Source: Paenacidovorax caeni (GTDB lineage Bacteria > Cyanobacteriota > Cyanobacteriia > PCC-6307 > Cyanobiaceae). Taken from it: a stretch of DNA of 64,000 bases. The position numbers and the translations under genes are program-made. Below are positions 23,990-32,933 of the stretch, piece by piece. The notes beneath the pieces are model-generated. The model worked only from the letters and a program-made list of their open reading frames with translations. It was not told where the DNA came from and searched no databases. Positions within the stretch are counted from its first letter, which is position 1. Every line of letters begins with the position of its first letter. Location of the stretch: NCBI GenBank assembly GCA_943371385.1, contig CALRUP020000005.1, positions 1,365 through 65,364 on the forward strand. The letters run 5' to 3'.

Positions 23990-25579
23990 TCAGGCTGTGG
24001 CTGCCAGCTCGACCTTCACCGGCGACGGAACGCTCGGCTGATTGAGCTGCCCCTGGCGATAGGCGGCCAGTTGATTCTCGATCTGCCGGCGCACGATCTC
24101 CCGGTACTCCATGAAATGCTCGTTGTGGGCACACACGGCCAGGTACTGCTCGGTCACCTTGGGGTTGGAGCGAAGGATGCTGAACAGGTGATGCCAAAAG
24201 GCCCAGCGGGTGGAGCGCTTGATCCCCTGACGCCAGCAGACGATCAGCAGCGCCCGGATCACCACCGGATCGGGAAGTTTGAAGGCGCTCTTCACCCTGG
24301 CTGGGCCGAGTTTAAGGAAATAGCGATGCACCCGGTCGAGATACTTACGCGGTTCATAGAGCTGGCAGAACGCTTCGACATACTCCTGGGCAATGTCTTC
24401 CACCGGCCTGGTCGGCACGAAATTCATCAGGGTGGTCTGGTTGATGTTGCCGACCTTGTCGATCAGCCGCCCTTCCTTCTCGAGCCTGTGCCAGAGGGCG
24501 GTATGGGGCAGGGCCTGAAGCATGGCGAAGGTGGTGGTGGGAATCCCCGCAGCTTCTGAGAAGGCCACGATCCGCTGACCGGCTCCCACCTTCTCCCCAT
24601 CGAAGCCGATGATGAAACCGGCGATCACCCTCAAGCCAGAGCGGGTCACCTTGTCGATCGAGTCGAGCAGGGGCGAGCGCATGTTCTGGAACTTCATGGT
24701 TGCGGCGAGGCTGTCGGCATCGGGGGTTTCGATACCCATGAAGACGGCGGCAAAGTTGCAGGCCAGCATCTGATCGATGAGTTCCTGATCGTCAGCCAGA
24801 TCGAGGGAAGCTTCGGTATCGAAGCGGAAGGGGTAGCCATGCTCTCGCTGCCAACGCTCCAGCGCCGTGAGCATCATCTTGACGTTGCGCTTGTTGCCGA
24901 TGAAGTTGTCATCGACCATGAACACACCACCCCGCCAGCCGAGGGTATAGAGGCTGTTGAGTTCGCCGATGAGTTGATCCGGTGACTTGGTCCGGGGTTT
25001 GCGGCCATAGAGCACGATGATGTCGCAGAATTCGCACTGGAATGGGCAGCCGCGCGAGAACTGCACGCTCATCGAGTCGTAGGCCTTGAGCTCGAGCAGG
25101 TCGTAGCGGGGAATCGGCGTGGATGTCACATCCGGCTTGACACCATTGGAGCTGAATCGTCCTCCTTGATCGCCCCTCTCCCAGGCCGCCACGAACATGG
25201 GCAGGGTGATCTCACCTTCATCGAGGATCAGGTAATCGGCCCCGGCGGCCACAAGCTCCTCGGGGGTGGAGGATGGATAGGGACCGCCTACGGCCACGGG
25301 CTTGCCGTGATGCCTGGCCAGATTGATCTGGCGAATGATGTCGTCTTTCTGAACGATCATCGCCGACATGATCACCAGATCAGCCCACATCCACTCTTGA
25401 TCAGTGACGGGCAGGATGTTCACATCAGCCAGCTTGAAGTTCCAATCCTGGGGCAGGATGGCCGCCACGGTGATCAATCCAAGCGGCGGCAGGAGAACCT
25501 TTCGATTCACCAGTTCGAGGATTTTCTCGTAACTCCAGAATGTTTTGGGAAACTCGGGATAAACCAGTAAGACATTCAT
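23990..25579 (-). CDS. B12-binding radical SAM protein with DUF4070 (class B methyltransferase-like)
   Basis: PPLGLITVAA, VAVGGPY, SRGCPFQCEFC (CxxxCxxC), DDNFIG, GIET and FIIGFD. Confidence 0.88.
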   Translation of the reverse strand: MNVLLVYPEFPKTFWSYEKILELVNRKVLLPPLGLITVAAILPQDWNFKLADVNILPVTDQEWMWADLVIMSAMIVQKDDIIRQINLARHHGKPVAVGGPYPSSTPEELVAAGADYLILDEGEITLPMFVAAWERGDQGGRFSSNGVKPDVTSTPIPRYDLLELKAYDSMSVQFSRGCPFQCEFCDIIVLYGRKPRTKSPDQLIGELNSLYTLGWRGGVFMVDDNFIGNKRNVKMMLTALERWQREHGYPFRFDTEASLDLADDQELIDQMLACNFAAVFMGIETPDADSLAATMKFQNMRSPLLDSIDKVTRSGLRVIAGFIIGFDGEKVGAGQRIVAFSEAAGIPTTTFAMLQALPHTALWHRLEKEGRLIDKVGNINQTTLMNFVPTRPVEDIAQEYVEAFCQLYEPRKYLDRVHRYFLKLGPARVKSAFKLPDPVVIRALLIVCWRQGIKRSTRWAFWHHLFSILRSNPKVTEQYLAVCAHNEHFMEYREIVRRQIENQLAAYRQGQLNQPSVPSPVKVELAATA

Positions 25580-26619: not shown

Positions 26620-28362
26620 TTGCCATCAACTCGGACCAGAATAGGTGCTTGCCTGATCGTGGCCATCGGCTGCACGTCACAGCACGCCTGGGCCCAGTCC
26701 CTGCCCTCGGGGGGGATCCAGCGTTTCGAGCGCGACCAGCGCCTGCGGGATGCGCTTGATGACCAGAACCGGCGCCTGCTGGAGCAGCGCAACAAGCCGG
26801 TGGTTCCCGAATCCCTGCCCCAGGGCAAGGAACCAAAACTGGAGACCGCGCCTGACTTCCTCTACGGCAGCGTGCGCCTCGAAGGCGTGTCGGTGGAGTG
26901 GAAGGGCCAACTCGAGGGCCTGGCGGCGCCCTATCTGAACCGTCCCGTGAGCCTGCGGGATCTGGAAACCCTGCGCAGCGCCATCCGCGACGCCTACCGA
27001 ACCCGCAACCTGCTCGGCCTGGTGCGGATCGATCCCAGCGGCCCCAAGGGGGGAGTGCTTGTGATCACGGTGACCGAAGCGCGCATGGGGGAGGTGAAGA
27101 TCGATTCAAGCGTCCGCCATCACCTCAATGACGGCATCGCCAAGGCCACCGTGCGGGCCTCGGTTCCGCAGGGCAGCCTGCTGCGGCTCGACAAGCTCAC
27201 CTCCGCCCTGCTCAAGCTCAACGATCTGGCCGGCGTACGGGTGCGCTCCACGCTCCAGCCCGGGGCTACCGCAGGCACCACCGATGTGCTGCTGACCCTG
27301 AGGGACACCGACCGCACCAGCGGCGAGCTGAACATCAGCAACGAGATCAACCGCTTCCTCGGCTCCACCGACATCGATCTCACCCTCACCGGATCCAACC
27401 TCCTCGGCCGAGGTGAGCGGATCTCCCTGGAGGGGGCCTGGTGGGGCAACAACGTCAACACCGGCAACCTGGTGGGCTCCCTCAATGCCACCCTGCCCGT
27501 GACCCCCGATGGGGCCCAGCTCAACTTCTACGGCAACTACAACGCCTACCGCCTGCTCGATGAGCTGTATGACGCCGACATCAACGGCAGCACCGGCAAC
27601 CTGCGGCTGGGGTTCCAGCAGCCCCTGTGGCGCCGGCCGAAGGAGTCGCTCTGGGGCAGCGTGAGTGGCGAGGTCAACAGTTACATCGACCGGATTCAGA
27701 CCACGGAGATCCGCAACCGGGACAGCCAGGTGGCCCGCCTCTCGCTGTTGGGCCAGAAGCAGGATGCGATCCTCGGCACAGGTCTGAACACGGCCCTGTT
27801 CCAGTACAGCCTCGGCAATCTGGATCGCTCCGGTAATGCCAATGATCTGCTCCTCGATTCCCTGACGGCCCAGACCGACGGGGTCTTCAACAAGGTGGGG
27901 CTGGTGGTGAGTCGCTATCAGGTTTTCTCCGACCGCTGGCACGCAAAGGTGTTCCTCCAGGCCCAGAAGGCCTTCAACAATCTCGACGGTGCCGAGAAGC
28001 TCTCTCTCGGCTATCCGAACGGTGTGCGGGCCTACCCCCCGGGTGAAGCCCCAGGAGACAGCGGCTTCAGCGGGCAGTTCGATCTGATCTACCGGGCCAC
28101 TCCGGAGCTTTCTCTGGTGGCGTTCATCGATGGGGGGTACATCTGGCGCTGGACCAATCCCTTTCAAGGCTCCCTTGAGCCCAATGGCTATGGACTGGCC
28201 GGTGCGGGTTTCGGGGTGGATCTCGGCACCCCGGGGGAATGGCTCGCCTCCGTCAAGGTGGCTTTTCCCATGGGGAACAATCCCGGCAGTCTCGATGACA
28301 CCGATGCGGACGGCTTCAACAAGGGCGTGAGGGTCTGGGGTTCTCTGCGGTGGTGGTTCTGA
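26620..28362 (+). CDS. TpsB outer-membrane transporter (ShlB/FhaC/HecB family)
   Basis: Signal peptide, POTRA-like region, barrel loop-6 motif GVRAY, and C-terminal WWF. Confidence 0.88.
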   Translation: MPSTRTRIGACLIVAIGCTSQHAWAQSLPSGGIQRFERDQRLRDALDDQNRRLLEQRNKPVVPESLPQGKEPKLETAPDFLYGSVRLEGVSVEWKGQLEGLAAPYLNRPVSLRDLETLRSAIRDAYRTRNLLGLVRIDPSGPKGGVLVITVTEARMGEVKIDSSVRHHLNDGIAKATVRASVPQGSLLRLDKLTSALLKLNDLAGVRVRSTLQPGATAGTTDVLLTLRDTDRTSGELNISNEINRFLGSTDIDLTLTGSNLLGRGERISLEGAWWGNNVNTGNLVGSLNATLPVTPDGAQLNFYGNYNAYRLLDELYDADINGSTGNLRLGFQQPLWRRPKESLWGSVSGEVNSYIDRIQTTEIRNRDSQVARLSLLGQKQDAILGTGLNTALFQYSLGNLDRSGNANDLLLDSLTAQTDGVFNKVGLVVSRYQVFSDRWHAKVFLQAQKAFNNLDGAEKLSLGYPNGVRAYPPGEAPGDSGFSGQFDLIYRATPELSLVAFIDGGYIWRWTNPFQGSLEPNGYGLAGAGFGVDLGTPGEWLASVKVAFPMGNNPGSLDDTDADGFNKGVRVWGSLRWWF

Positions 28363-31271
28363 TGAAACAGTCAATGAACAGCGGATCGATCAGCCTGCGC
28401 CTGCTGCTGTGGCGTGCCTCCCACGCCGGGATGGCGGCCCTCGCCCTGGCCAGCGGGATTCCCTTGAGTCCTGCCCAGGCGTTGCCGACCGGGAACCAGC
28501 AGGTGGGCAGCGGCACCCACACGGCTACCCCTTCGGGCAACACCCTCACCGTCACCACGCCGGGCCGGGCGGTGATCAGCTGGGGCAGCTTCAACATCGG
28601 ACGGGGCGAAGCGGTCAACTTCCAGAACGGTGGCGCCGTTCTCAACTACGTACGCAGCGGTGGCGGGGCCTCTCGCCTCGATGGCGCCCTCAATGCCATC
28701 AATCCCCTGGTGTTGATCAACAACCAGGGCATCACGGTGGGCTCGACGGCCGTGATCTCCGTGCCCAGCATCCTGCTCACCAGTGGCACGCTCACCTCCG
28801 ACGGGGTGGAGAAGTTCCTCACTGGTGCGGCCTATGGCAACGGCCTGAATGCGCCGTTGATCAGCATCGTCATGGCCGATGGCGATGGGCCGGTTCAGGT
28901 GGACGGCAGCATCCGCTCCACCAATGGGGGCGGCATCGGCCTTGTGGCCCCATCCGTCACCATCGGCCCATCGGCCACCATCGTCACCCGCGGCTTCCGC
29001 ACCCCATCCACCGGCACCGATGGGGTCAACACCACCGTGAACGGTGTCGTAGCCGAAGGTTCACTCTGGATCGGCACCACCGGATTGCCAGCCAGCCCCT
29101 TCACGGCGCCTCCGGGGTTGCCCACCGGCTTCGGCTTCGTCCAGATCAGCGGCCAACCCTCGCCCCAGAGCGCGTCGCTGGCGTTGCAAGCCACCTACGA
29201 CCTCGAGCGTTTCGTGGTCAACACCAAGGGAGCCACGGTCGGGCAGTTCGATGGGCTGTTCTTCTCCCCCAGCTTCAGAGCTGCAGATTTCTACGTCTAT
29301 GACGGCATCGCCGCGATCGAAGAGGGCCACCGCGAAAGCACCAATGGAGGTTCCCTCAGGCGTCGCCTCACCCATACCGACGCCCAGGGCAACCTCGTCG
29401 CCGAGGAGAGGGACGAAGCCAGCATCCTTGGCCTGACGTTGCCGCCAGGGGCTGTATTACTGAACGCCGACGGTGTCCGCGTCGATCCAGCCTCCGGGCA
29501 GATCCTGACCGCAACGCTCACGGTTCAGCCGGGCCCCGATGCGGTGGCCAATCAAGATTTTATTAACCAGTTCGGCAGCGGGGCCCTGAAGGTCACGATC
29601 GACGGTGGCGCCTCGTCGGTGGTGGGCAGCAACGGGGCGAAGGCGGCTTATAACCCGCAGACGGGATTGATCACCTGGACCAAGACAATTCCGGGAACGC
29701 CCACGACCCAGATGGTGGCGATTCCTGGCGGATCGTTCACGATCAATCAGGGGCAGACGAATCCTGGTTTCACCAGGCCACCGGAAGCTGGAATTAGCCA
29801 GCAATATGTCAGCAAGGAGGGTTACTACTATCACGGCAATAACGGTCAGTACGCAGGAACCAGCCCTTGCCCTGGCTGCCGCTATGTGAATCCCGTCACC
29901 GGTCAGGTGACCTACTGGCGGGGGCACTTCACCACCGACAGCAACGGCCGCCCGCAGTTCAGCACCGCTGGCAATGTGCCTCCCACCCATGTGCTCTACG
30001 TGGTCGGTGGCCGGACCTACGTGACCGATGCGGCCAATTTCAATCCCCAGACCACACCGAAGAATCCACCCACCCAGGTGGTGACGCCGCCGATCTACCA
30101 GCAGGTCACCACGCCGGGCACTCCCACCGTGGTGCAGCTCCAGCAGGCGCTTCCCCTGACGGGTCAGGCCACGGTGCCCCAGGGTTCCGCCACCTCCAAC
30201 TGGCAGCGGCCGACGCCGCCACCCTTGGTGATCCAGGCTCCCGTGCCGCAGCCCACGACAGCACCCACTCCAGGCCAGGTGCCAACCATGGCGCCCGCTC
30301 TAGTGCCGCAGCCCACCACAGCTCCCACCCTTCAGCCACCTACGGCCGCGGTTCCCACCATGGCGCCGATCAAGGTGCCGCAGCCCACCACAGCTCCCAC
30401 CCTTCAGCCGCCTACGGCCGCGGTTCCCACCATGGCGCCGATCAAGGTGCCGCAGCCCACCACCGCACCCAAGCCCGGTCAGGTTCCGACGATGGCGCCT
30501 GGACTAGTACCACAACCCACCACGGCTCCCAAGCCGCTGCTAACTCCGACGATGGCTCCGGGGCTGTTGCCGCAACCGACGGCAGCGCCGAAGCCAACTC
30601 AGGGCCCGTCAGTAACACCGACCTTGGCGCCGACCTTTACGCCAACTCAGGGCCCGACGTCGGCACCGCAACCCACGCCGTCACCAACCCAGGCCCCCGT
30701 GCGGCAGCCGCTGCTGACGCCCACACTGGCACCACAGAAGGTGCCGCAACCGACGGCTGCGCCGAAGCCAACTCAGGGCCCGTCAGTGACACCGACCTTG
30801 GCCCCGACCTTGACGCCAACTCAGGGCCCGACGTCGGCACCGCAACCCACGCCGTCACCAACCCAGGCCCCCCTACGGCAGCCGCTGCTGACGCCCACAC
30901 TGGCACCGCAGAAGGTGCCGCAACCGACGGCTGCGCCGAAGCCGGTTCCTGGTCCCGTCCTCAGGCCGCTTCCCGTGGAGGAGCGGGTGCCCACCTCTGG
31001 AATGCGGCCTGTTCCACGCACCGATTCCTTCAGTTACCAGATCCCAAGGGGGCTCATCGAACAACGCATCCCTGGTGCCATCCCAGAGCAGAGCCGCGCA
31101 CGCCTCTTCGACGGACGTGCCCTGCCACCTGGAGTCGAATTCGATCCCTTCAGCCAGACCTTCGAGATCAAGAGCTACGGGAAAATCTCTCTACCGCTCG
31201 ACGTGCTCCTGCTCGTTCCGACCCGCAGTGGCACCACCGGCTCGTTCACCCTGACGATCGGCAAACCCTGA
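28362..31271 (+). CDS. TpsA exoprotein: FHA-type secretion domain, Pro/Thr mucin-like domain and C-terminal cadherin/He_PIG-like domain
   Basis: AQA-LPTG cleavage site, AVISWGSFNIG, V.FQN, S.LDG.L and LINNQGI (NPNG-like). ATG overlaps the tpsB TGA. Confidence 0.85.
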   Translation: MKQSMNSGSISLRLLLWRASHAGMAALALASGIPLSPAQALPTGNQQVGSGTHTATPSGNTLTVTTPGRAVISWGSFNIGRGEAVNFQNGGAVLNYVRSGGGASRLDGALNAINPLVLINNQGITVGSTAVISVPSILLTSGTLTSDGVEKFLTGAAYGNGLNAPLISIVMADGDGPVQVDGSIRSTNGGGIGLVAPSVTIGPSATIVTRGFRTPSTGTDGVNTTVNGVVAEGSLWIGTTGLPASPFTAPPGLPTGFGFVQISGQPSPQSASLALQATYDLERFVVNTKGATVGQFDGLFFSPSFRAADFYVYDGIAAIEEGHRESTNGGSLRRRLTHTDAQGNLVAEERDEASILGLTLPPGAVLLNADGVRVDPASGQILTATLTVQPGPDAVANQDFINQFGSGALKVTIDGGASSVVGSNGAKAAYNPQTGLITWTKTIPGTPTTQMVAIPGGSFTINQGQTNPGFTRPPEAGISQQYVSKEGYYYHGNNGQYAGTSPCPGCRYVNPVTGQVTYWRGHFTTDSNGRPQFSTAGNVPPTHVLYVVGGRTYVTDAANFNPQTTPKNPPTQVVTPPIYQQVTTPGTPTVVQLQQALPLTGQATVPQGSATSNWQRPTPPPLVIQAPVPQPTTAPTPGQVPTMAPALVPQPTTAPTLQPPTAAVPTMAPIKVPQPTTAPTLQPPTAAVPTMAPIKVPQPTTAPKPGQVPTMAPGLVPQPTTAPKPLLTPTMAPGLLPQPTAAPKPTQGPSVTPTLAPTFTPTQGPTSAPQPTPSPTQAPVRQPLLTPTLAPQKVPQPTAAPKPTQGPSVTPTLAPTLTPTQGPTSAPQPTPSPTQAPLRQPLLTPTLAPQKVPQPTAAPKPVPGPVLRPLPVEERVPTSGMRPVPRTDSFSYQIPRGLIEQRIPGAIPEQSRARLFDGRALPPGVEFDPFSQTFEIKSYGKISLPLDVLLLVPTRSGTTGSFTLTIGKP
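30303..30446 (+). repeat. 72-bp tandem repeat x2 (VPQPTTAPTLQPPTAAVPTMAPIK)
   Basis: Units start at 30303 and 30375; a partial third unit starts at 30447. Confidence 0.92.
30570..30944 (+). repeat. 174-bp tandem repeat x2 plus partial (58 aa, PQPTAAPKPTQGP...)
   Basis: Units start at 30570, 30744 and 30918. Confidence 0.92.
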
Positions 31272-31283
31272 ATGGGCTGAGCC

Positions 31284-32900
31284 ATGCCGAGCCTTGCACC
31301 AGGACTCAGCCTGATCATCGGCAGCCGCAACGAGGGTGCCTATCTACGGCGCACTGTTGAGGGAGCCTTTGCGCTCACCCCACCCGAGGGCGGTCTTGAA
31401 TGTTCGCTCTACGACGACGCCTCAAGCGATGGCAGCGCGGCGTTCTGCTACGAACCACCCTGGCGCCAACTCCGCGACCAGGGGGCCCTTCGCTTGCAAC
31501 GCGGTGCTGTCCGTGTCGGGGTCTCCCGGGGCCGACGCCAGGGTGCGGCCGGTTGCCGCGCAGAGGTGCTGGTGTTCCTTGATGCCCATCTGGAGTTTCC
31601 CCAGAGCGATCTCTGGTTGAAGGTTCAGGAGAAGTTCCGTGACCCGGCCTGCGATCTTCTGGGGATCGACTGCTTCGACAGTCGCAATGGTGCCACCACA
31701 GCTGGAACGATCTACAGCAGCAAGCGGCTGGATCACCTCAATCCGGCCTGGGTGCAGCAGCAAGCTGAGCCACTGGTGGGGATAGAGGTGCCCTTCGTGA
31801 ATGGCGGCTTCTTTGCCATTCGCCGTCGGGTCTACGAACGACTGGAGGGTTTTCCGGATTTCCTGGAGGACTGGGGCCATGAGGACCGCTTCCTCTCCAT
31901 GCTTGCCGGCATCTGTGGGTACCACTGCCGGATCGATCAACGGCTACGGGTCGGCCATCTCTACAAGGAGGTGTTCGATGAACGGGAGGGCCTTGCCTTG
32001 CCCGAAGCCTTCTCGGACCCGCTGCCTTCTGATGGCGTTGCCCTACCGGAGGTCGTCTACCGCCATGCCGATGCGGCAGCGGCGGGCGTGTCGACCCTGT
32101 TGATGAACAGCCTGCGGTGTGGCGCTGTGCTGTACAGCGCCGAGATCGCTGAGCGCATGAACGAGCAGCTGCGCTTCGATTTCGGCTCTGAGATGGTCGA
32201 AAGGGCCCTTGTGCTGCTTGAGCAGGAACGTCCCCAGCTGGAGGCCCTGATGCTTCGTCTTGGGCTCACCCCCGAACGGCGTGACCAGCAGATGGGGGAT
32301 TTCTTTCAGCGTTTCAGGCCCGTTCTGCCGATGCTGGAGGAGGCGGATCTGCAGGCCACGGCCACGATGGCGGATATTTCTCAGGCACTCGATCGATTGC
32401 GGCAGTTGCCCCTAACGCTGCCTTCCCTCGATCAGCCGGACGCTGACCATTACCGAACGGCCCGCCTCTACCGAGAAGCCCTCTATGGCTACCAGCTCCA
32501 GCGGCATGAGGAGGCCAGCCGTCTGCTGGCCGAGTTGCTGACGATAGATCCGGACTACCTGCCGGCCATCTGCCTGCTGTGTGTGAACCTGCGGGCCCTG
32601 GGGCGTCTGGCGGGCGAGCGATTCTGGCTGCAGCGGGGTGCCGAGATCATCGAGCGCCACCGCCCCCAGGTGGGTCCAGGCCCGGTCGGGGCGTTCCACC
32701 CCGCCAGCCTCAACCCCTACCTTCGCCATCTCTATTGGCCTGAGGCGGATCGGATGATCTGGGCAGCCCTGGCGGATCTAGAGGAGCGGGCTGGCCACAC
32801 ATCTGCGGCCGTGGGATGGCTGCTCAAGCTGCTCGATCAGTCGCCCGACGACCCTTCTGTGCGGGAGCAGTTGCTGCGGTTGGTGCAACCTCAGCCGTGA
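31284..32900 (+). CDS. Cytoplasmic GT-A glycosyltransferase with ppGalNAc-T-like motifs and C-terminal TPR-like helices
   Basis: SLII..RNE, FLDAHLE (DxH), PFVNGGFFAI.R, WGHED..LS...CG and RVGHLYK. No signal peptide or TM. 12 bp after tpsA. Confidence 0.8.
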   Translation: MPSLAPGLSLIIGSRNEGAYLRRTVEGAFALTPPEGGLECSLYDDASSDGSAAFCYEPPWRQLRDQGALRLQRGAVRVGVSRGRRQGAAGCRAEVLVFLDAHLEFPQSDLWLKVQEKFRDPACDLLGIDCFDSRNGATTAGTIYSSKRLDHLNPAWVQQQAEPLVGIEVPFVNGGFFAIRRRVYERLEGFPDFLEDWGHEDRFLSMLAGICGYHCRIDQRLRVGHLYKEVFDEREGLALPEAFSDPLPSDGVALPEVVYRHADAAAAGVSTLLMNSLRCGAVLYSAEIAERMNEQLRFDFGSEMVERALVLLEQERPQLEALMLRLGLTPERRDQQMGDFFQRFRPVLPMLEEADLQATATMADISQALDRLRQLPLTLPSLDQPDADHYRTARLYREALYGYQLQRHEEASRLLAELLTIDPDYLPAICLLCVNLRALGRLAGERFWLQRGAEIIERHRPQVGPGPVGAFHPASLNPYLRHLYWPEADRMIWAALADLEERAGHTSAAVGWLLKLLDQSPDDPSVREQLLRLVQPQP

Positions 32901-32915: not shown

Positions 32916-32933
32916 CCATGCCTTCGGGCATGG
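32916..32933 (+). terminator. Stable hairpin closing the TPS operon
   Basis: CCATGCC-TTCG-GGCATGG (C(UUCG)G tetraloop) 15 bp after the GT stop. No U-tract. Confidence 0.45.

Follow-up and report, generated by a model that had tools for sequence, protein, structure and literature searches.

The locus described here raises the question of what a long, proline- and threonine-rich tandem repeat does in a bacterial exoprotein whose gene is directly followed by a glycosyltransferase (GT) gene. It lies in a window (the whole stretch of DNA analysed) of 64,000 nucleotides from a freshwater picocyanobacterium. An earlier note, made from the letters alone, had called the repeat a mucin domain and taken it for an acceptor array of the neighbouring enzyme. 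In our reading the region is the Pro/Thr stalk of a two-partner secretion (TPS) exoprotein, and it is probably the dedicated O-glycosylation acceptor array of the GT encoded 12 bp downstream.

Organisation of the operon

Three genes follow each other tightly on the forward strand. The tpsB stop overlaps the ATG of tpsA (TGATG), and the gap from the tpsA stop to the GT start is 12 bp. From these junctions we infer that the three genes are co-transcribed. The features are:

26620..28362, +, tpsB, Omp85-type TPS transporter (POTRA_2 and ShlB/FhaC/HecB barrel; Pfam PF03865 at E 2.4e-15 and PF08479 at E 2.1e-7, each exceeding the gathering score)
28362..31271, +, tpsA, exoprotein of 969 aa (Pfam TPS domain PF05860 and named orthologues); domain order: signal peptide, TPS domain, family-specific middle region, PT repeat stalk, C-terminal Ig-like domain
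30210..30944, +, Pro/Thr tandem-repeat region, residues 621-865, 32 PTxxP units; proposed O-glycosylation acceptor array and extended stalk
30278..30471, +, 72-bp (24-aa) tandem array AVPTMAPIKVPQPTTAPTLQPPTA, 2.7 copies, 92% match (Tandem Repeats Finder)
30422..30577, +, 60-bp (20-aa) tandem array QVPTMAPGLVPQPTTAPKPG, about 2 copies (1.9-2.2), 73-78% match (Tandem Repeats Finder)
30568..30943, +, 174-bp (58-aa) tandem array, 2.2 copies, 96% match (Tandem Repeats Finder and a second repeat search)
31017..31268, +, conserved C-terminal beta-sandwich (Ig-like) domain of about 85 aa at the far end of the stalk (alignment, AF2, fold search)
31284..32900, +, soluble GT-A glycosyltransferase (DxH and C-His, GT27/GT60-like) with C-terminal TPR-like domain (Pfam, PDB matches, AF2, Foldseek)
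32916..32933, +, 7-bp stem with UUCG loop just 3' of the GT stop codon; the operon transcript may end here (read from the sequence)

An in-frame GTG at 28350 is an alternative upstream start of tpsA and gives 973 aa; residues 621-865 map exactly to 30210-30944 in the translation of 28350-31271. The terminator scan did not call the hairpin at 32916..32933, since its stem lacks a following T-run. An open frame at 29867-31360 (497 aa) was rejected as a gene; it is a stop-free shadow frame of the GC-rich repeat and has no homologues besides frameshifted annotations.

The exoprotein outside the repeat

By its sequence TpsA is a two-partner (type Vb) secretion exoprotein, with predicted TpsB-dependent export. 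The N-terminal TPS secretion domain is found at residues 43-204 (PF05860, E 4.4e-11, score 43.6 bits, cutoff 33.5), and the adjoining TpsB is of the Omp85 type (POTRA and ShlB barrel, profiles above cutoff); the pair is kept in orthologous loci. Orthologues of TpsA in Cyanobium and Synechococcus are named [quoted passage not shown]. Pfam returned nothing useful for the middle 416 aa and no match for the C-terminal 108 aa. The C-terminal domain of about 85 aa has 21 invariant columns in an alignment of nine orthologues, and its AF2 model has a pLDDT of 80-94 in the structured part. The best PDB fold matches of this domain, the Ig/cadherin-like domain of alpha-dystroglycan and Rib domains, are weak (E ~1e-3).

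The succession of TPS domain, body, Pro-rich region and small conserved C-terminal domain recalls Bordetella FhaB, in which the proline-rich region and the extreme C-terminus act as a prodomain. The same could apply here: both parts would stay periplasmic, govern how the N-terminal part is secreted or matures, and be cleaved off by proteases, with glycosylation secondary if present at all. TpsA proteins are exported N-terminus first, and the C-terminus is therefore the last part out, which would fit such a role. However, Pfam finds similarity to FhaB in the TPS domain only, and the model of the C-terminal domain is an Ig-like sandwich of a kind common in surface adhesins. A second family of PT-array proteins, described below, uses ABC/HlyD export, which has no periplasmic stage, and a prodomain would leave the dedicated GT unexplained. 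We regard this explanation as distinctly improbable.

Composition and tandem structure of the repeat

The earlier estimate of about 30 PTxxP pentamers at 30210-30944 was close: there are 32 overlapping matches to PT..P in residues 621-865, and none in the rest of TpsA. The commonest variants are PTTAP and PTMAP (five each), PTQGP and PTLAP (four each) and PTAAP (three); PTLQP, PTSAP, PTPSP and PTQAP occur twice each, and three are singletons. That the motif might be no more frequent than in shuffled sequence of the same composition had been named as a refutation; shuffling the 245 residues gave 4.3±1.9 matches (maximum 12), and none of 5000 shuffles reached 32. For PT.AP the count is 21 against 0.5 in such shuffles. 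With each tandem unit collapsed to a single copy (135 aa), 17 PTxxP remain against 2.4±1.4 (maximum 9 in 10000 shuffles), so the enrichment goes beyond an effect of recent duplication.

The Tandem Repeats Finder arrays bear out that the region expanded by tandem duplication. The repeats noted before as 72 bp x2 and 174 bp x2 are right (72 x2.7 and 174 x2.2), although the intermediate 60-bp array had been missed. The array could in part be an assembly artefact, or the gene may be decaying, and copy number and "VNTR" behaviour would then mean little. Two orthologous loci from short-read assemblies do have the N-terminal part and the C-terminal domain in different frames, and one orthologue, as deposited, is read through in an incorrect frame. 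In the window, however, the frame is open from the signal peptide to the conserved C-terminus, and several orthologues are intact. Furthermore, the repeat periods are multiples of three at all loci, and PTxxP is retained under 23 different 15-nt encodings among the 32 units. Artefact or decay is scarcely credible on these data.

The repeat consists of 31% Pro, 19% Thr, 12% Ala, 10% Gln and 2.4% Ser, and its 245 residues include no Asp, Glu or Cys. Thr is enriched relative to the rest of TpsA (19% against 10%) and Ser is depleted (2.4% against 7.8%). As the name of a Pro-dominant, Ser-poor spacer in a bacterial TpsA, "mucin domain" holds as an analogy only. The premise that Pro at -1 and +3 of the acceptor Thr is the preferred context was half right. 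Pro stands at +3 of 32 of the 47 Thr in the repeat, but in eukaryotes the conserved sequon, T/S-P-x-P, has Pro at both +1 and +3 (bioRxiv 10.1101/2020.06.25.171371); Pro is at +1 in three of the 32 PTxxP units.

The regular P-x-x-x-P spacing (51 pairs, 22 expected) is also what would be expected of a polyproline-II spacer. The region could then be a passive extended stalk, unglycosylated and comparable to the PT linkers of many bacterial secreted enzymes, and the GT would act on TpsA outside the repeat, on TpsB or on an acceptor that is not a protein. A mere spacer does not explain why position 2 of the PxxxP pairs is Thr, and not any small residue, in 32 of 51 cases, when Thr makes up 47 of the 170 non-Pro residues.

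The neighbouring glycosyltransferase

The suggestion that the neighbouring enzyme resembles ppGalNAc-Ts was confirmed. Its catalytic domain (about residues 1-260; Pfam Glycos_transf_2, E 2.3e-13) is followed by an all-helical TPR-like domain (about residues 270-535; TPR_14, E 3.7e-7). The best PDB sequence matches are GalNAc-T10, T2 and T1 (E 1e-14 to 1e-9), with an identity to animal ppGalNAc-Ts of about 20%. The AF2 model (pLDDT 91, pTM 0.86) shows a single-Rossmann GT-A fold with a helical repeat, and the best 50 Foldseek matches in the PDB are all ppGalNAc-Ts. No GT41 chain is found among the PDB sequence matches or the best 50 fold matches.

The motifs D100-A-H102, WGHED and RVGH225 are invariant, and D100, H102 and H225 align to D224, H226 and H359 of GalNAc-T2; DxH and C-His are unchanged in 21 homologues. 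For the Gal/GalNAc-T motif WGGENxExS the enzyme has an invariant WGHEDRFLS, and PF02709 (Glyco_transf_7C) scores 18.2 bits, below its cutoff of 23. The replacement of DxD by DxH has been reported as confined to GT27 and GT60, both families of polypeptide Ser/Thr O-glycosyltransferases (PMC7185993). Strand beta-1 of the GT-A fold stands at the very start of the enzyme, which has neither a signal peptide nor a type II membrane anchor at its N-terminus; a ricin-type lectin domain is lacking too, the C-terminal half being TPR-like.

A search of 1.8 billion representatives gave about 200 clusters of relatives at E<1e-10. Among 144 aligned relatives, 122 have DAH and only three the AGGLF signature of GalNAc-Ts. 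The nearest are GT2(+7C)-TPR or tandem-GT2 proteins without eukaryotic lectin-domain hallmarks; they are uncharacterised and presumably prokaryotic, the library being without taxonomy. By sequence, then, the closest relatives are uncharacterised DxH GT-A proteins and not bona fide ppGalNAc-Ts. Since the homology to GT27 is remote (about 20% identity) and these relatives are uncharacterised, homology does not prove a polypeptide acceptor, and for the same reasons the acceptor rules of the animal enzymes are not transferable. Uncharacterised closest relatives would also suit a GT acting elsewhere than on the repeat; on the other side, a soluble enzyme with a TPR tail and the DxH/C-His signature fits a polypeptide acceptor.

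In the +1 pocket of GalNAc-T2 (F280/W282/F361), F361 aligns with the invariant Y227, while F280/W282 fall in a poorly aligned loop, and the pocket was dropped as a guide to acceptor specificity. Three Melioribacter loci matched the GT patterns at 24-26% identity but have no PT-rich neighbour; they were taken for generic GT2 and placed outside the system.

Co-occurrence of the glycosyltransferase and Pro/Thr repeats

Orthologous GTs occur in about 3% of related genomes (10 with and 291 without, 301 in the family). This TpsA is present in four of the 301, in all four with the GT directly downstream, and every further orthologous locus long enough to judge has the order tpsB-tpsA(PT)-GT. More divergent GT orthologues (40-54% identity) are located in or beside an ABC-ABC-HlyD export operon (type-I-like). 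The cargo there is divergently encoded and unrelated to TpsA, but is also Pro/Thr-repeat-rich, with 42 PTxxP at loci L019 and L035 and 18 at L021 and L039. The GT tree places the T1SS-linked enzymes at its base and gathers those linked to TPS in a single clade (100/99). Judged from these sequences, PT-repeat cargo is what persists with the GT across the switch of secretion system.

A PT-rich filter leaves only four frames in the genome of the window, of which TpsA alone has more than five PTxxP. A DNA pattern for triple PTxAP matches solely the GT-linked gene in genomes G000 (19 matches), G140 (51), G181 (44) and G272 (19). Arrays of at least 10 matches to this pattern were found in four of the 10 GT-positive genomes and one of the 291 GT-negative genomes (hypergeometric p ~3e-6, not corrected for shared ancestry), and the co-occurrence counts represent about two independent evolutionary associations. 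Long PTxAP arrays thus appear almost only at GT-linked genes. The pattern test was substituted for an uninformative protein search: the whole type-2 cargo protein had no match in the orphan-GT genomes, G000 or G058, but as a query it was too low in complexity or too divergent, and missed the known member in G058.

Two orphan GT orthologues (L032 and L033) stand in a housekeeping context with no PT-rich gene within 10 kb, and the DNA pattern found no PTxAP array anywhere in their genomes. PT repeats in turn do not need the GT, since GT-less genomes contain short PT linkers and one 10-match PTPAP array; a PT linker is also found in a kinase-like ORF of the window's genome. The cargo of G058 has TPGM/TPGL units and no PTxxP, and the acceptor context is accordingly not uniform. 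The orphan enzymes and GT-less linkers are what one would expect if the stalk were an unmodified spacer. Nevertheless, neither the persistence of the GT with PT-repeat cargo through the switch of secretion system nor the near-restriction of long PTxAP arrays to GT-linked genes is explained in that way, and we consider it unlikely.

Genomic context therefore suggests, and supports well, that the stalk is an acceptor array. Of the earlier proposal, the link between repeat and enzyme stood up to comparative genomics, and its derivation from animal acceptor rules is not supported. Of the variation in length that would make the repeat a mucin-like VNTR, the part between species is seen: orthologues differ strongly. 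The PT region ranges from 146 to 891 aa, and its units are 72x2.7/174x2.2 here, 78x18.4 in L027, and 78x10.7, 129x8.1 and 78x8.7 in L023; PTxxP is 3-9 fold enriched in every orthologue though the units differ. An exact-match scan of metagenome contigs with the 29-nt flank just upstream of the repeat gave no match.

Comparison with known glycosylation systems

Stalk and GT together may be viewed as a variant of TPS glycosylation of the HMW1ABC/EtpBAC type. HMW1C and EtpC are GT41 enzymes of the GT-B fold, with Asn in NX(S/T) as their N-glycosylation site. In non-typeable Haemophilus influenzae (HMW1A/B/C) and in enterotoxigenic E. coli (EtpBAC) the TPS operon likewise has three genes, for transporter, exoprotein and soluble GT, and the order B-A-GT of etpBAC matches the present operon. 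For HMW1C and EtpA it is established that a GT from the operon itself glycosylates the TpsA protein in the cytoplasm; the modification is proposed to take place on repeated sequence, before export through Sec and TpsB, and to stabilise the exoprotein (PMC5422565). The present enzyme differs in being a GT-A DxH protein of GT27/GT60 type with a TPR tail, its presumed acceptor is Thr in a Pro/Thr repeat, and its host is a free-living picocyanobacterium and not a pathogen.

Eukaryotic mucin-type glycosylation (CAZy GT27 acting on PTS VNTR domains) has in common with this locus the catalytic fold and metal ligands (DxH and C-His), a Pro/Thr tandem repeat of variable length with Pro at +3 of most Thr, and a non-catalytic C-terminal domain positioned to aid processive reading of a repetitive substrate. 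In contrast to GT27, the present GT is soluble and predicted cytoplasmic, whereas those enzymes are type II membrane proteins of the Golgi; it carries TPR where they have a ricin-type lectin domain, and shares only about 20% identity. The motif lacks the +1 Pro of T/S-P-x-P, Ser is nearly absent, and glycosylation here is predicted. The other DxH GT-A family, GT60, includes a soluble cytoplasmic member. Its polypeptide alpha-GlcNAc transferases of protists (among them cytoplasmic Gnt1 on Skp1) are grouped with GT27 and act on polypeptide hydroxyls (PMC7185993). They modify other targets, either Hyp of Skp1 or mucin-like, Thr-rich protist proteins, and the likeness is one of DxH class, with no GT60 chain among the PDB matches.

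Bacterial PT linkers, for example in cellulases, often carry O-glycans, and glycosylation of linkers is reported in PMC3490864. Such linkers and the present stalk alike keep folded domains of secreted proteins apart by an extended, low-complexity stretch rich in Pro and Thr. They are usually 20-60 aa long and, in actinobacteria, glycosylated extracytoplasmically by membrane enzymes of PMT type, whereas the present family has 146-891 aa of long tandem units and a dedicated soluble GT. Within the cyanobacteria, the Ogt of Synechococcus elongatus is a soluble, TPR-containing GT41 enzyme of the GT-B fold. It differs from the present GT in fold and family and has no operon link to repeat cargo. According to PMC9306852, this GT homologue is required for glycosylation of pilin, an exported surface protein. 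Our literature search found no described bacterial GT27-like enzyme tied to TPS or PT repeats, an absence that is not proof.

Proposed mechanism and implications

In the mechanism we propose, tpsB, tpsA and the GT would be transcribed together. In the cytoplasm the GT, a putative soluble Mn2+-type retaining GT-A enzyme whose catalytic signature D100xH102 and H225 is seen in the sequence, would dock on the extended repeat, presumably by its TPR tail, and move a monosaccharide from a UDP-sugar onto Thr, with P-T-x-(A/G)-P as the putative contexts. Export of the modified and still unfolded chain would use first Sec and next TpsB, on the model of HMW1 and EtpA. At the surface, a polyproline-II-like, glycan-stiffened and protease-resistant stalk would separate the C-terminal Ig-like domain from the N-terminal TPS domain and body. 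Unequal recombination or slippage of the in-frame 60-174-bp units would alter stalk length and the number of acceptor sites, and this may account for the homogenised unit and the copy number peculiar to each orthologue.

A wider reading is offered as a serious possibility, short of an expectation. Freshwater picocyanobacteria may have a self-contained bacterial mucin-type O-glycosylation, in which a soluble GT27/GT60-like DxH enzyme with TPR replacing the lectin domain reads a P-T-x-A-P-type sequon over the whole of very long repeats in the cytoplasm. The GT would have shifted from type-I cargo to a TPS exoprotein, and the sequon would have arisen independently in two unrelated cargo scaffolds under selection by the enzyme. 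Repeat turnover would tune stalk length and glycan load, with phages or grazers as a possible selective pressure.

Should the neighbouring enzyme indeed glycosylate the stalk, the mucin-like design of a Pro/Thr VNTR with an initiating enzyme of GT27 type would exist in bacteria too, in a minimal three-gene form, instead of being an invention of eukaryotes. TPS-associated glycosylation would then include more than the GT41 N-glycosyltransferases known from pathogens. How GT-A polypeptide transferases read proline-flanked threonines could be studied on a simple soluble enzyme and its defined repeat substrate, with possible use in bacterial glyco-engineering. For the picocyanobacteria themselves it would mean a variable glycoprotein surface appendage, encoded in an accessory island of about 3% of their genomes, that could plausibly affect phage adsorption, grazing or aggregation.

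Organisation of the operon and domain layout of TpsA

The flagged region falls within a single long open reading frame in high-GC bacterial DNA (window GC about 66%). This frame is part of an operon with the following features:

26620-28362, plus strand: tpsB, transporter of a two-partner secretion (TPS) system
28350/28362-31271, plus strand: tpsA, the TPS exoprotein
30210-30944, plus strand: Pro/Thr-rich (PT) region, exactly residues 621-865 of TpsA
31017-31268, plus strand: conserved domain of about 85 aa, C-terminal to the PT region
31284-32900, plus strand: gene of the neighbouring glycosyltransferase (GT)

The product of the upstream gene is a TpsB of the ShlB/FhaC type that includes a POTRA_2 domain (Pfam), and the stop codon of this gene overlaps the ATG of tpsA (TGATG). 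Residues 43-204 of TpsA match the TPS secretion domain (PF05860, above cutoff), and its homologues in Cyanobium and Synechococcus are annotated as 'filamentous hemagglutinin N-terminal domain-containing protein'. The host, with a genome of 2.83 Mb, is a freshwater-type picocyanobacterium.

The C-terminal domain of TpsA has no Pfam model. In the AF2 model it forms a small Ig-like beta-sandwich (pLDDT 80-94 in the structured part), and the folds that come closest are the Ig/cadherin-like domains of alpha-dystroglycan and bacterial Rib domains, at weak scores (E ~1e-3). Alpha-dystroglycan itself has a central mucin-like region. The PT array is located between the body of TpsA and this modelled domain, and is therefore a spacer, with the secreted body on one side and a terminal Ig-like module on the other. 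The layout of TpsA is adhesin-like, and the flagged region is almost certainly its tandem-repeat stalk.

Directly upstream of the operon, 23990-25579 on the minus strand encodes a B12-binding radical-SAM protein with a DUF4070 domain. The GC content around this gene (0.595 at 24-26 kb) is lower than in the surroundings, and the stretch may be the edge of an accessory island. At the other end, 16 nt 3' of the GT stop codon, a 7-bp GC-rich stem with a UUCG tetraloop (32916-32933, without a T-run) may, judging from its sequence, be a transcript-end or stability element of the operon.

Anatomy of the PT repeat

Residues 621-865 contain 32 overlapping matches to P-T-x-x-P, and none are found in the rest of TpsA. 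Shuffling the same 245 residues gave 4.3±1.9 matches (maximum 12, n=5000), and the narrower PT.AP motif occurs 21 times where 0.5 is expected. Recent duplications inflate such motif counts, and the test was therefore repeated with a single copy of each tandem unit retained; the collapsed 135 aa still hold 17 PTxxP, against 2.4±1.4 after shuffling (maximum 9, n=10000). The motif also exceeds mere proline periodicity, as Thr occupies position 2 in 32 of 51 PxxxP pairs, although it accounts for just 28% of the residues other than Pro. At the DNA level, 23 different 15-mers code for the 32 units; VPQPTTAPKPGQVPTMAPGL is an example of a repeat peptide.

Tandem Repeats Finder resolved three arrays, 72 bp x2.7 (92%), 60 bp x~2 and 174 bp x2.2 (96%), all in frame. 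An earlier note had described a PTxxP-built domain expanded by tandem duplication, and had named comparison with same-composition shuffles as one check that could refute it. The motif counts, the shuffles and the in-frame arrays show this description to be correct and the repeat to be non-random. Mis-assembly or gene decay as the origin of the repeat is very improbable given the open frame and the in-frame repeat periods. Two stop-free shadow frames cross the GC-rich repeat, 29867-31360 on the plus strand (497 aa) and 30637-30906 on the minus strand (89 aa); we rejected both as genes, although they may mislead gene callers.

Length variation of the stalk

Across TpsA orthologues the first 620 residues and the C-terminal domain are retained, but the PT region ranges from 146 to 891 aa. 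Each lineage has repeat units and copy numbers of its own, homogenised within the array. The repeat periods are multiples of three in every compared locus, and every TpsA orthologue shows a 3-9 fold enrichment of PTxxP.

PT arrays in other genomes
Cyanobium gracile UHCC 0281: 78 bp x18.4
Cyanobium ATX-6F1: 78 bp x10.7 + 129 bp x8.1 + 78 bp x8.7
Unrelated Vulcanococcus cargo: units of 75/66/111 bp

In these comparisons between species, the pattern is what one would expect of arrays that continue to expand, contract and homogenise while selection favours the PTxxP motif. An exact-match scan with the flank upstream of the repeat found no near-identical metagenome contig.

In two short-read assemblies, Synechococcus sp. 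BO 8801 (L026:6208-9985) and C. gracile UHCC 0281 (L027:6319-10053), the N-terminal part and the C-terminal domain of TpsA are in different frames, which implies a frameshift within the 78-bp PT array. In the protein deposited for BO 8801 (P0046), translation continues in the wrong frame. These frameshifts could be short-read assembly errors, or real slippage or phase variation.

The neighbouring glycosyltransferase

The GT (538 aa) starts 12 bases past the tpsA stop codon and matches Glycos_transf_2 and TPR models (Pfam). Its AF2 model is confident (pLDDT 91, pTM 0.86) and places an all-helical repeat domain C-terminal to a GT-A domain; no N-terminal signal peptide or membrane anchor was found. 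The best PDB sequence matches are the animal GalNAc-T10, T2, T1 and T12 (E 1e-14 to 1e-9), and the best 50 Foldseek matches in the PDB are all ppGalNAc-Ts. D100-A-H102, NGGFFAIRR, WGHEDR and V223/H225/Y227 are invariant across 21 GT homologues. In the alignment to the PDB sequence, D100, H102 and H225 correspond to D224, H226 and H359 of GalNAc-T2, and Y227 to F361. DxH in place of DxD is reported to be restricted to GT27 and GT60, two families of polypeptide O-glycosyltransferases, and in GT27 the C-His serves as a metal ligand (PMC7185993).

Scanned exhaustively with HMMER, 1.8 billion representatives yielded about 200 clusters at E<1e-10. DAH is present in 122 of 144 aligned relatives and the GalNAc-T 'AGGLF' signature in only three of the 144. 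Nearest to the enzyme are GT2(+7C)-TPR or tandem-GT2 proteins, which are uncharacterised and show no hallmarks of the eukaryotic lectin domain; as the scanned library is taxonomy-free, we infer their prokaryotic origin. Animal enzymes head the PDB lists because they are the sole solved members of a wider DxH clade. The enzyme lacks the lectin domain and membrane anchor, and its nearest relatives are not bona fide GalNAc-Ts; it is therefore best regarded as a prokaryotic DxH GT-A relative rather than a GT27 member. Homology alone does not prove a protein acceptor, and indicates nothing firm about the sugar.

Association of the GT with PT repeats

Ten of 301 family genomes encode the GT and four of these the TpsA, with the GT directly downstream in every one (4/4). 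When 185,579 species genomes were scanned, the order tpsB-tpsA(PT)-GT was seen in every additional orthologous locus of sufficient length for a judgement.

More divergent GT orthologues (40-54% identity) either form the last gene of an ABC-ABC-HlyD export operon (Pfam) or lie convergent to it. The cargo of these loci is encoded divergently and belongs to a protein family unrelated to TpsA, sharing the N-terminal motif L..L.GL.NLH.GDRE.[YF]; no N-terminal Sec signal was obvious by eye in these proteins. This second cargo, too, contains Pro/Thr tandem repeats, and PTxxP occurs 42 times in the protein of Vulcanococcus limneticus and 18 times in that of another Vulcanococcus.

Loci with the second cargo and ABC-ABC-HlyD genes
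L019/L035:1561-11590
L021/L039
L020/L036
L022:938-11777

In the maximum-likelihood GT tree the T1SS-linked enzymes are basal and all TPS-linked enzymes fall in one clade (100/99), suggesting that the GT switched secretion partner once while a PT-repeat cargo remained its neighbour. The stalk might alternatively be a proline-rich part of an FhaB-like periplasmic prodomain; this is improbable, as both the Ig-like nature of the terminal domain and the ABC/HlyD setting weaken it.

A DNA pattern of three PTxAP at short spacing was searched in the 301 genomes. In the window's own genome (19 matches) and in G140 (51), G181 (44) and G272 (19), it hits the GT-linked gene exclusively. Among GT-less genomes, one has 10 matches from a PTPAP/PEPT linker and others have 1-5; reversed-pattern controls gave 0-2. 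Arrays of at least 10 matches occur in 4/10 genomes with the GT versus 1/291 without (hypergeometric p ~3e-6), a count affected by shared ancestry, so that the co-occurrence amounts to about two independent associations. A PT-rich filter on the window's own genome passed only four frames, with TpsA as the sole large array; two of the remaining three are probable shadow frames, and the third is a kinase-like frame. This last one (contig C2:193156-195261, outside the window) by eye resembles a Ser/Thr protein kinase and has a predicted membrane segment; its C-terminal PT tail of about 60 aa, PTTPTTPGEPTPTDPVPSTPTPAPTPTPAPTPSAPTGPTPPPP, is the only other real PT-rich stretch in this genome.

Two observations count against the link. 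The triple-PTxAP pattern found no array anywhere in two genomes with orphan GTs, and the second-cargo protein of genome G058 (3033 aa) has a different Thr context, with very long TPGM/TPGL arrays. The orphan GTs (L032 and L033, 58% identity; MAGs labelled Pseudanabaena sp. UWO311 / Synechococcus sp. UW140) are nested within the TPS-linked clade, which suggests that their cargo was lost or relocated. Their neighbourhood is housekeeping (SpoT/RelA, SelO, metallophosphatase), with no PT-rich gene within 10 kb.

The PT region could instead have the passive role of a spacer that carries no glycans, in which case the GT would act elsewhere. We consider this unlikely, since it is weakened by the second genomic context, the GT phylogeny and the genome-wide specificity. 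We lean towards the PT stalk being the acceptor array of the neighbouring GT. The earlier note had proposed such an array, and the phyletic pattern, second context, phylogeny and specificity speak for it, with the orphan GTs and the G058 context against.

Comparison with known systems and proposed role

Functionally, HMW1ABC and EtpBAC are closest, being TPS systems with an operon-encoded cytoplasmic GT and a similar gene layout. The HMW1C/EtpC-side enzymes are GT41 N-glycosyltransferases of GT-B fold, whereas the modelled fold of the GT studied here is not GT-B. Mechanistically closest is eukaryotic mucin-type initiation (GT27), which shares the catalytic signature but has a lectin domain and a membrane anchor that are both absent here.

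The eukaryotic sequon is T/S-P-x-P (bioRxiv 10.1101/2020.06.25.171371). The +3 Pro is shared (32/47 Thr), but +1 Pro is found in only 3/32 units. The earlier premise of Pro at -1 and +3 thus holds for +3 but misses the +1 Pro of the sequon, and a eukaryotic acceptor rule is not transferable to an enzyme at 20% identity. Literature searches found no description of a bacterial TPS- or PT-repeat-linked GT27-like enzyme.

We propose that the GT would act in the cytoplasm on nascent or unfolded TpsA, docking on the extended repeat via its TPR domain and transferring a single sugar, from a UDP-HexNAc or UDP-hexose donor, to Thr in P-T-x-(A/G)-P. Cytoplasmic modification fits the ABC/HlyD context, because in type-I-like export the cargo leaves directly from the cytoplasm. 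The modified chain would be exported via Sec and then TpsB, as known for HMW1 and EtpA (PMC5422565). A glycosylated, PPII-like stalk would lend the terminal Ig-like domain reach, stiffness and protease resistance. The operon is a partly supported candidate for dedicated glycosylation of a TPS exoprotein, a kind of system already known, in which the combination of a mucin-enzyme-like GT-A enzyme with a Pro/Thr, VNTR-like acceptor would be new.
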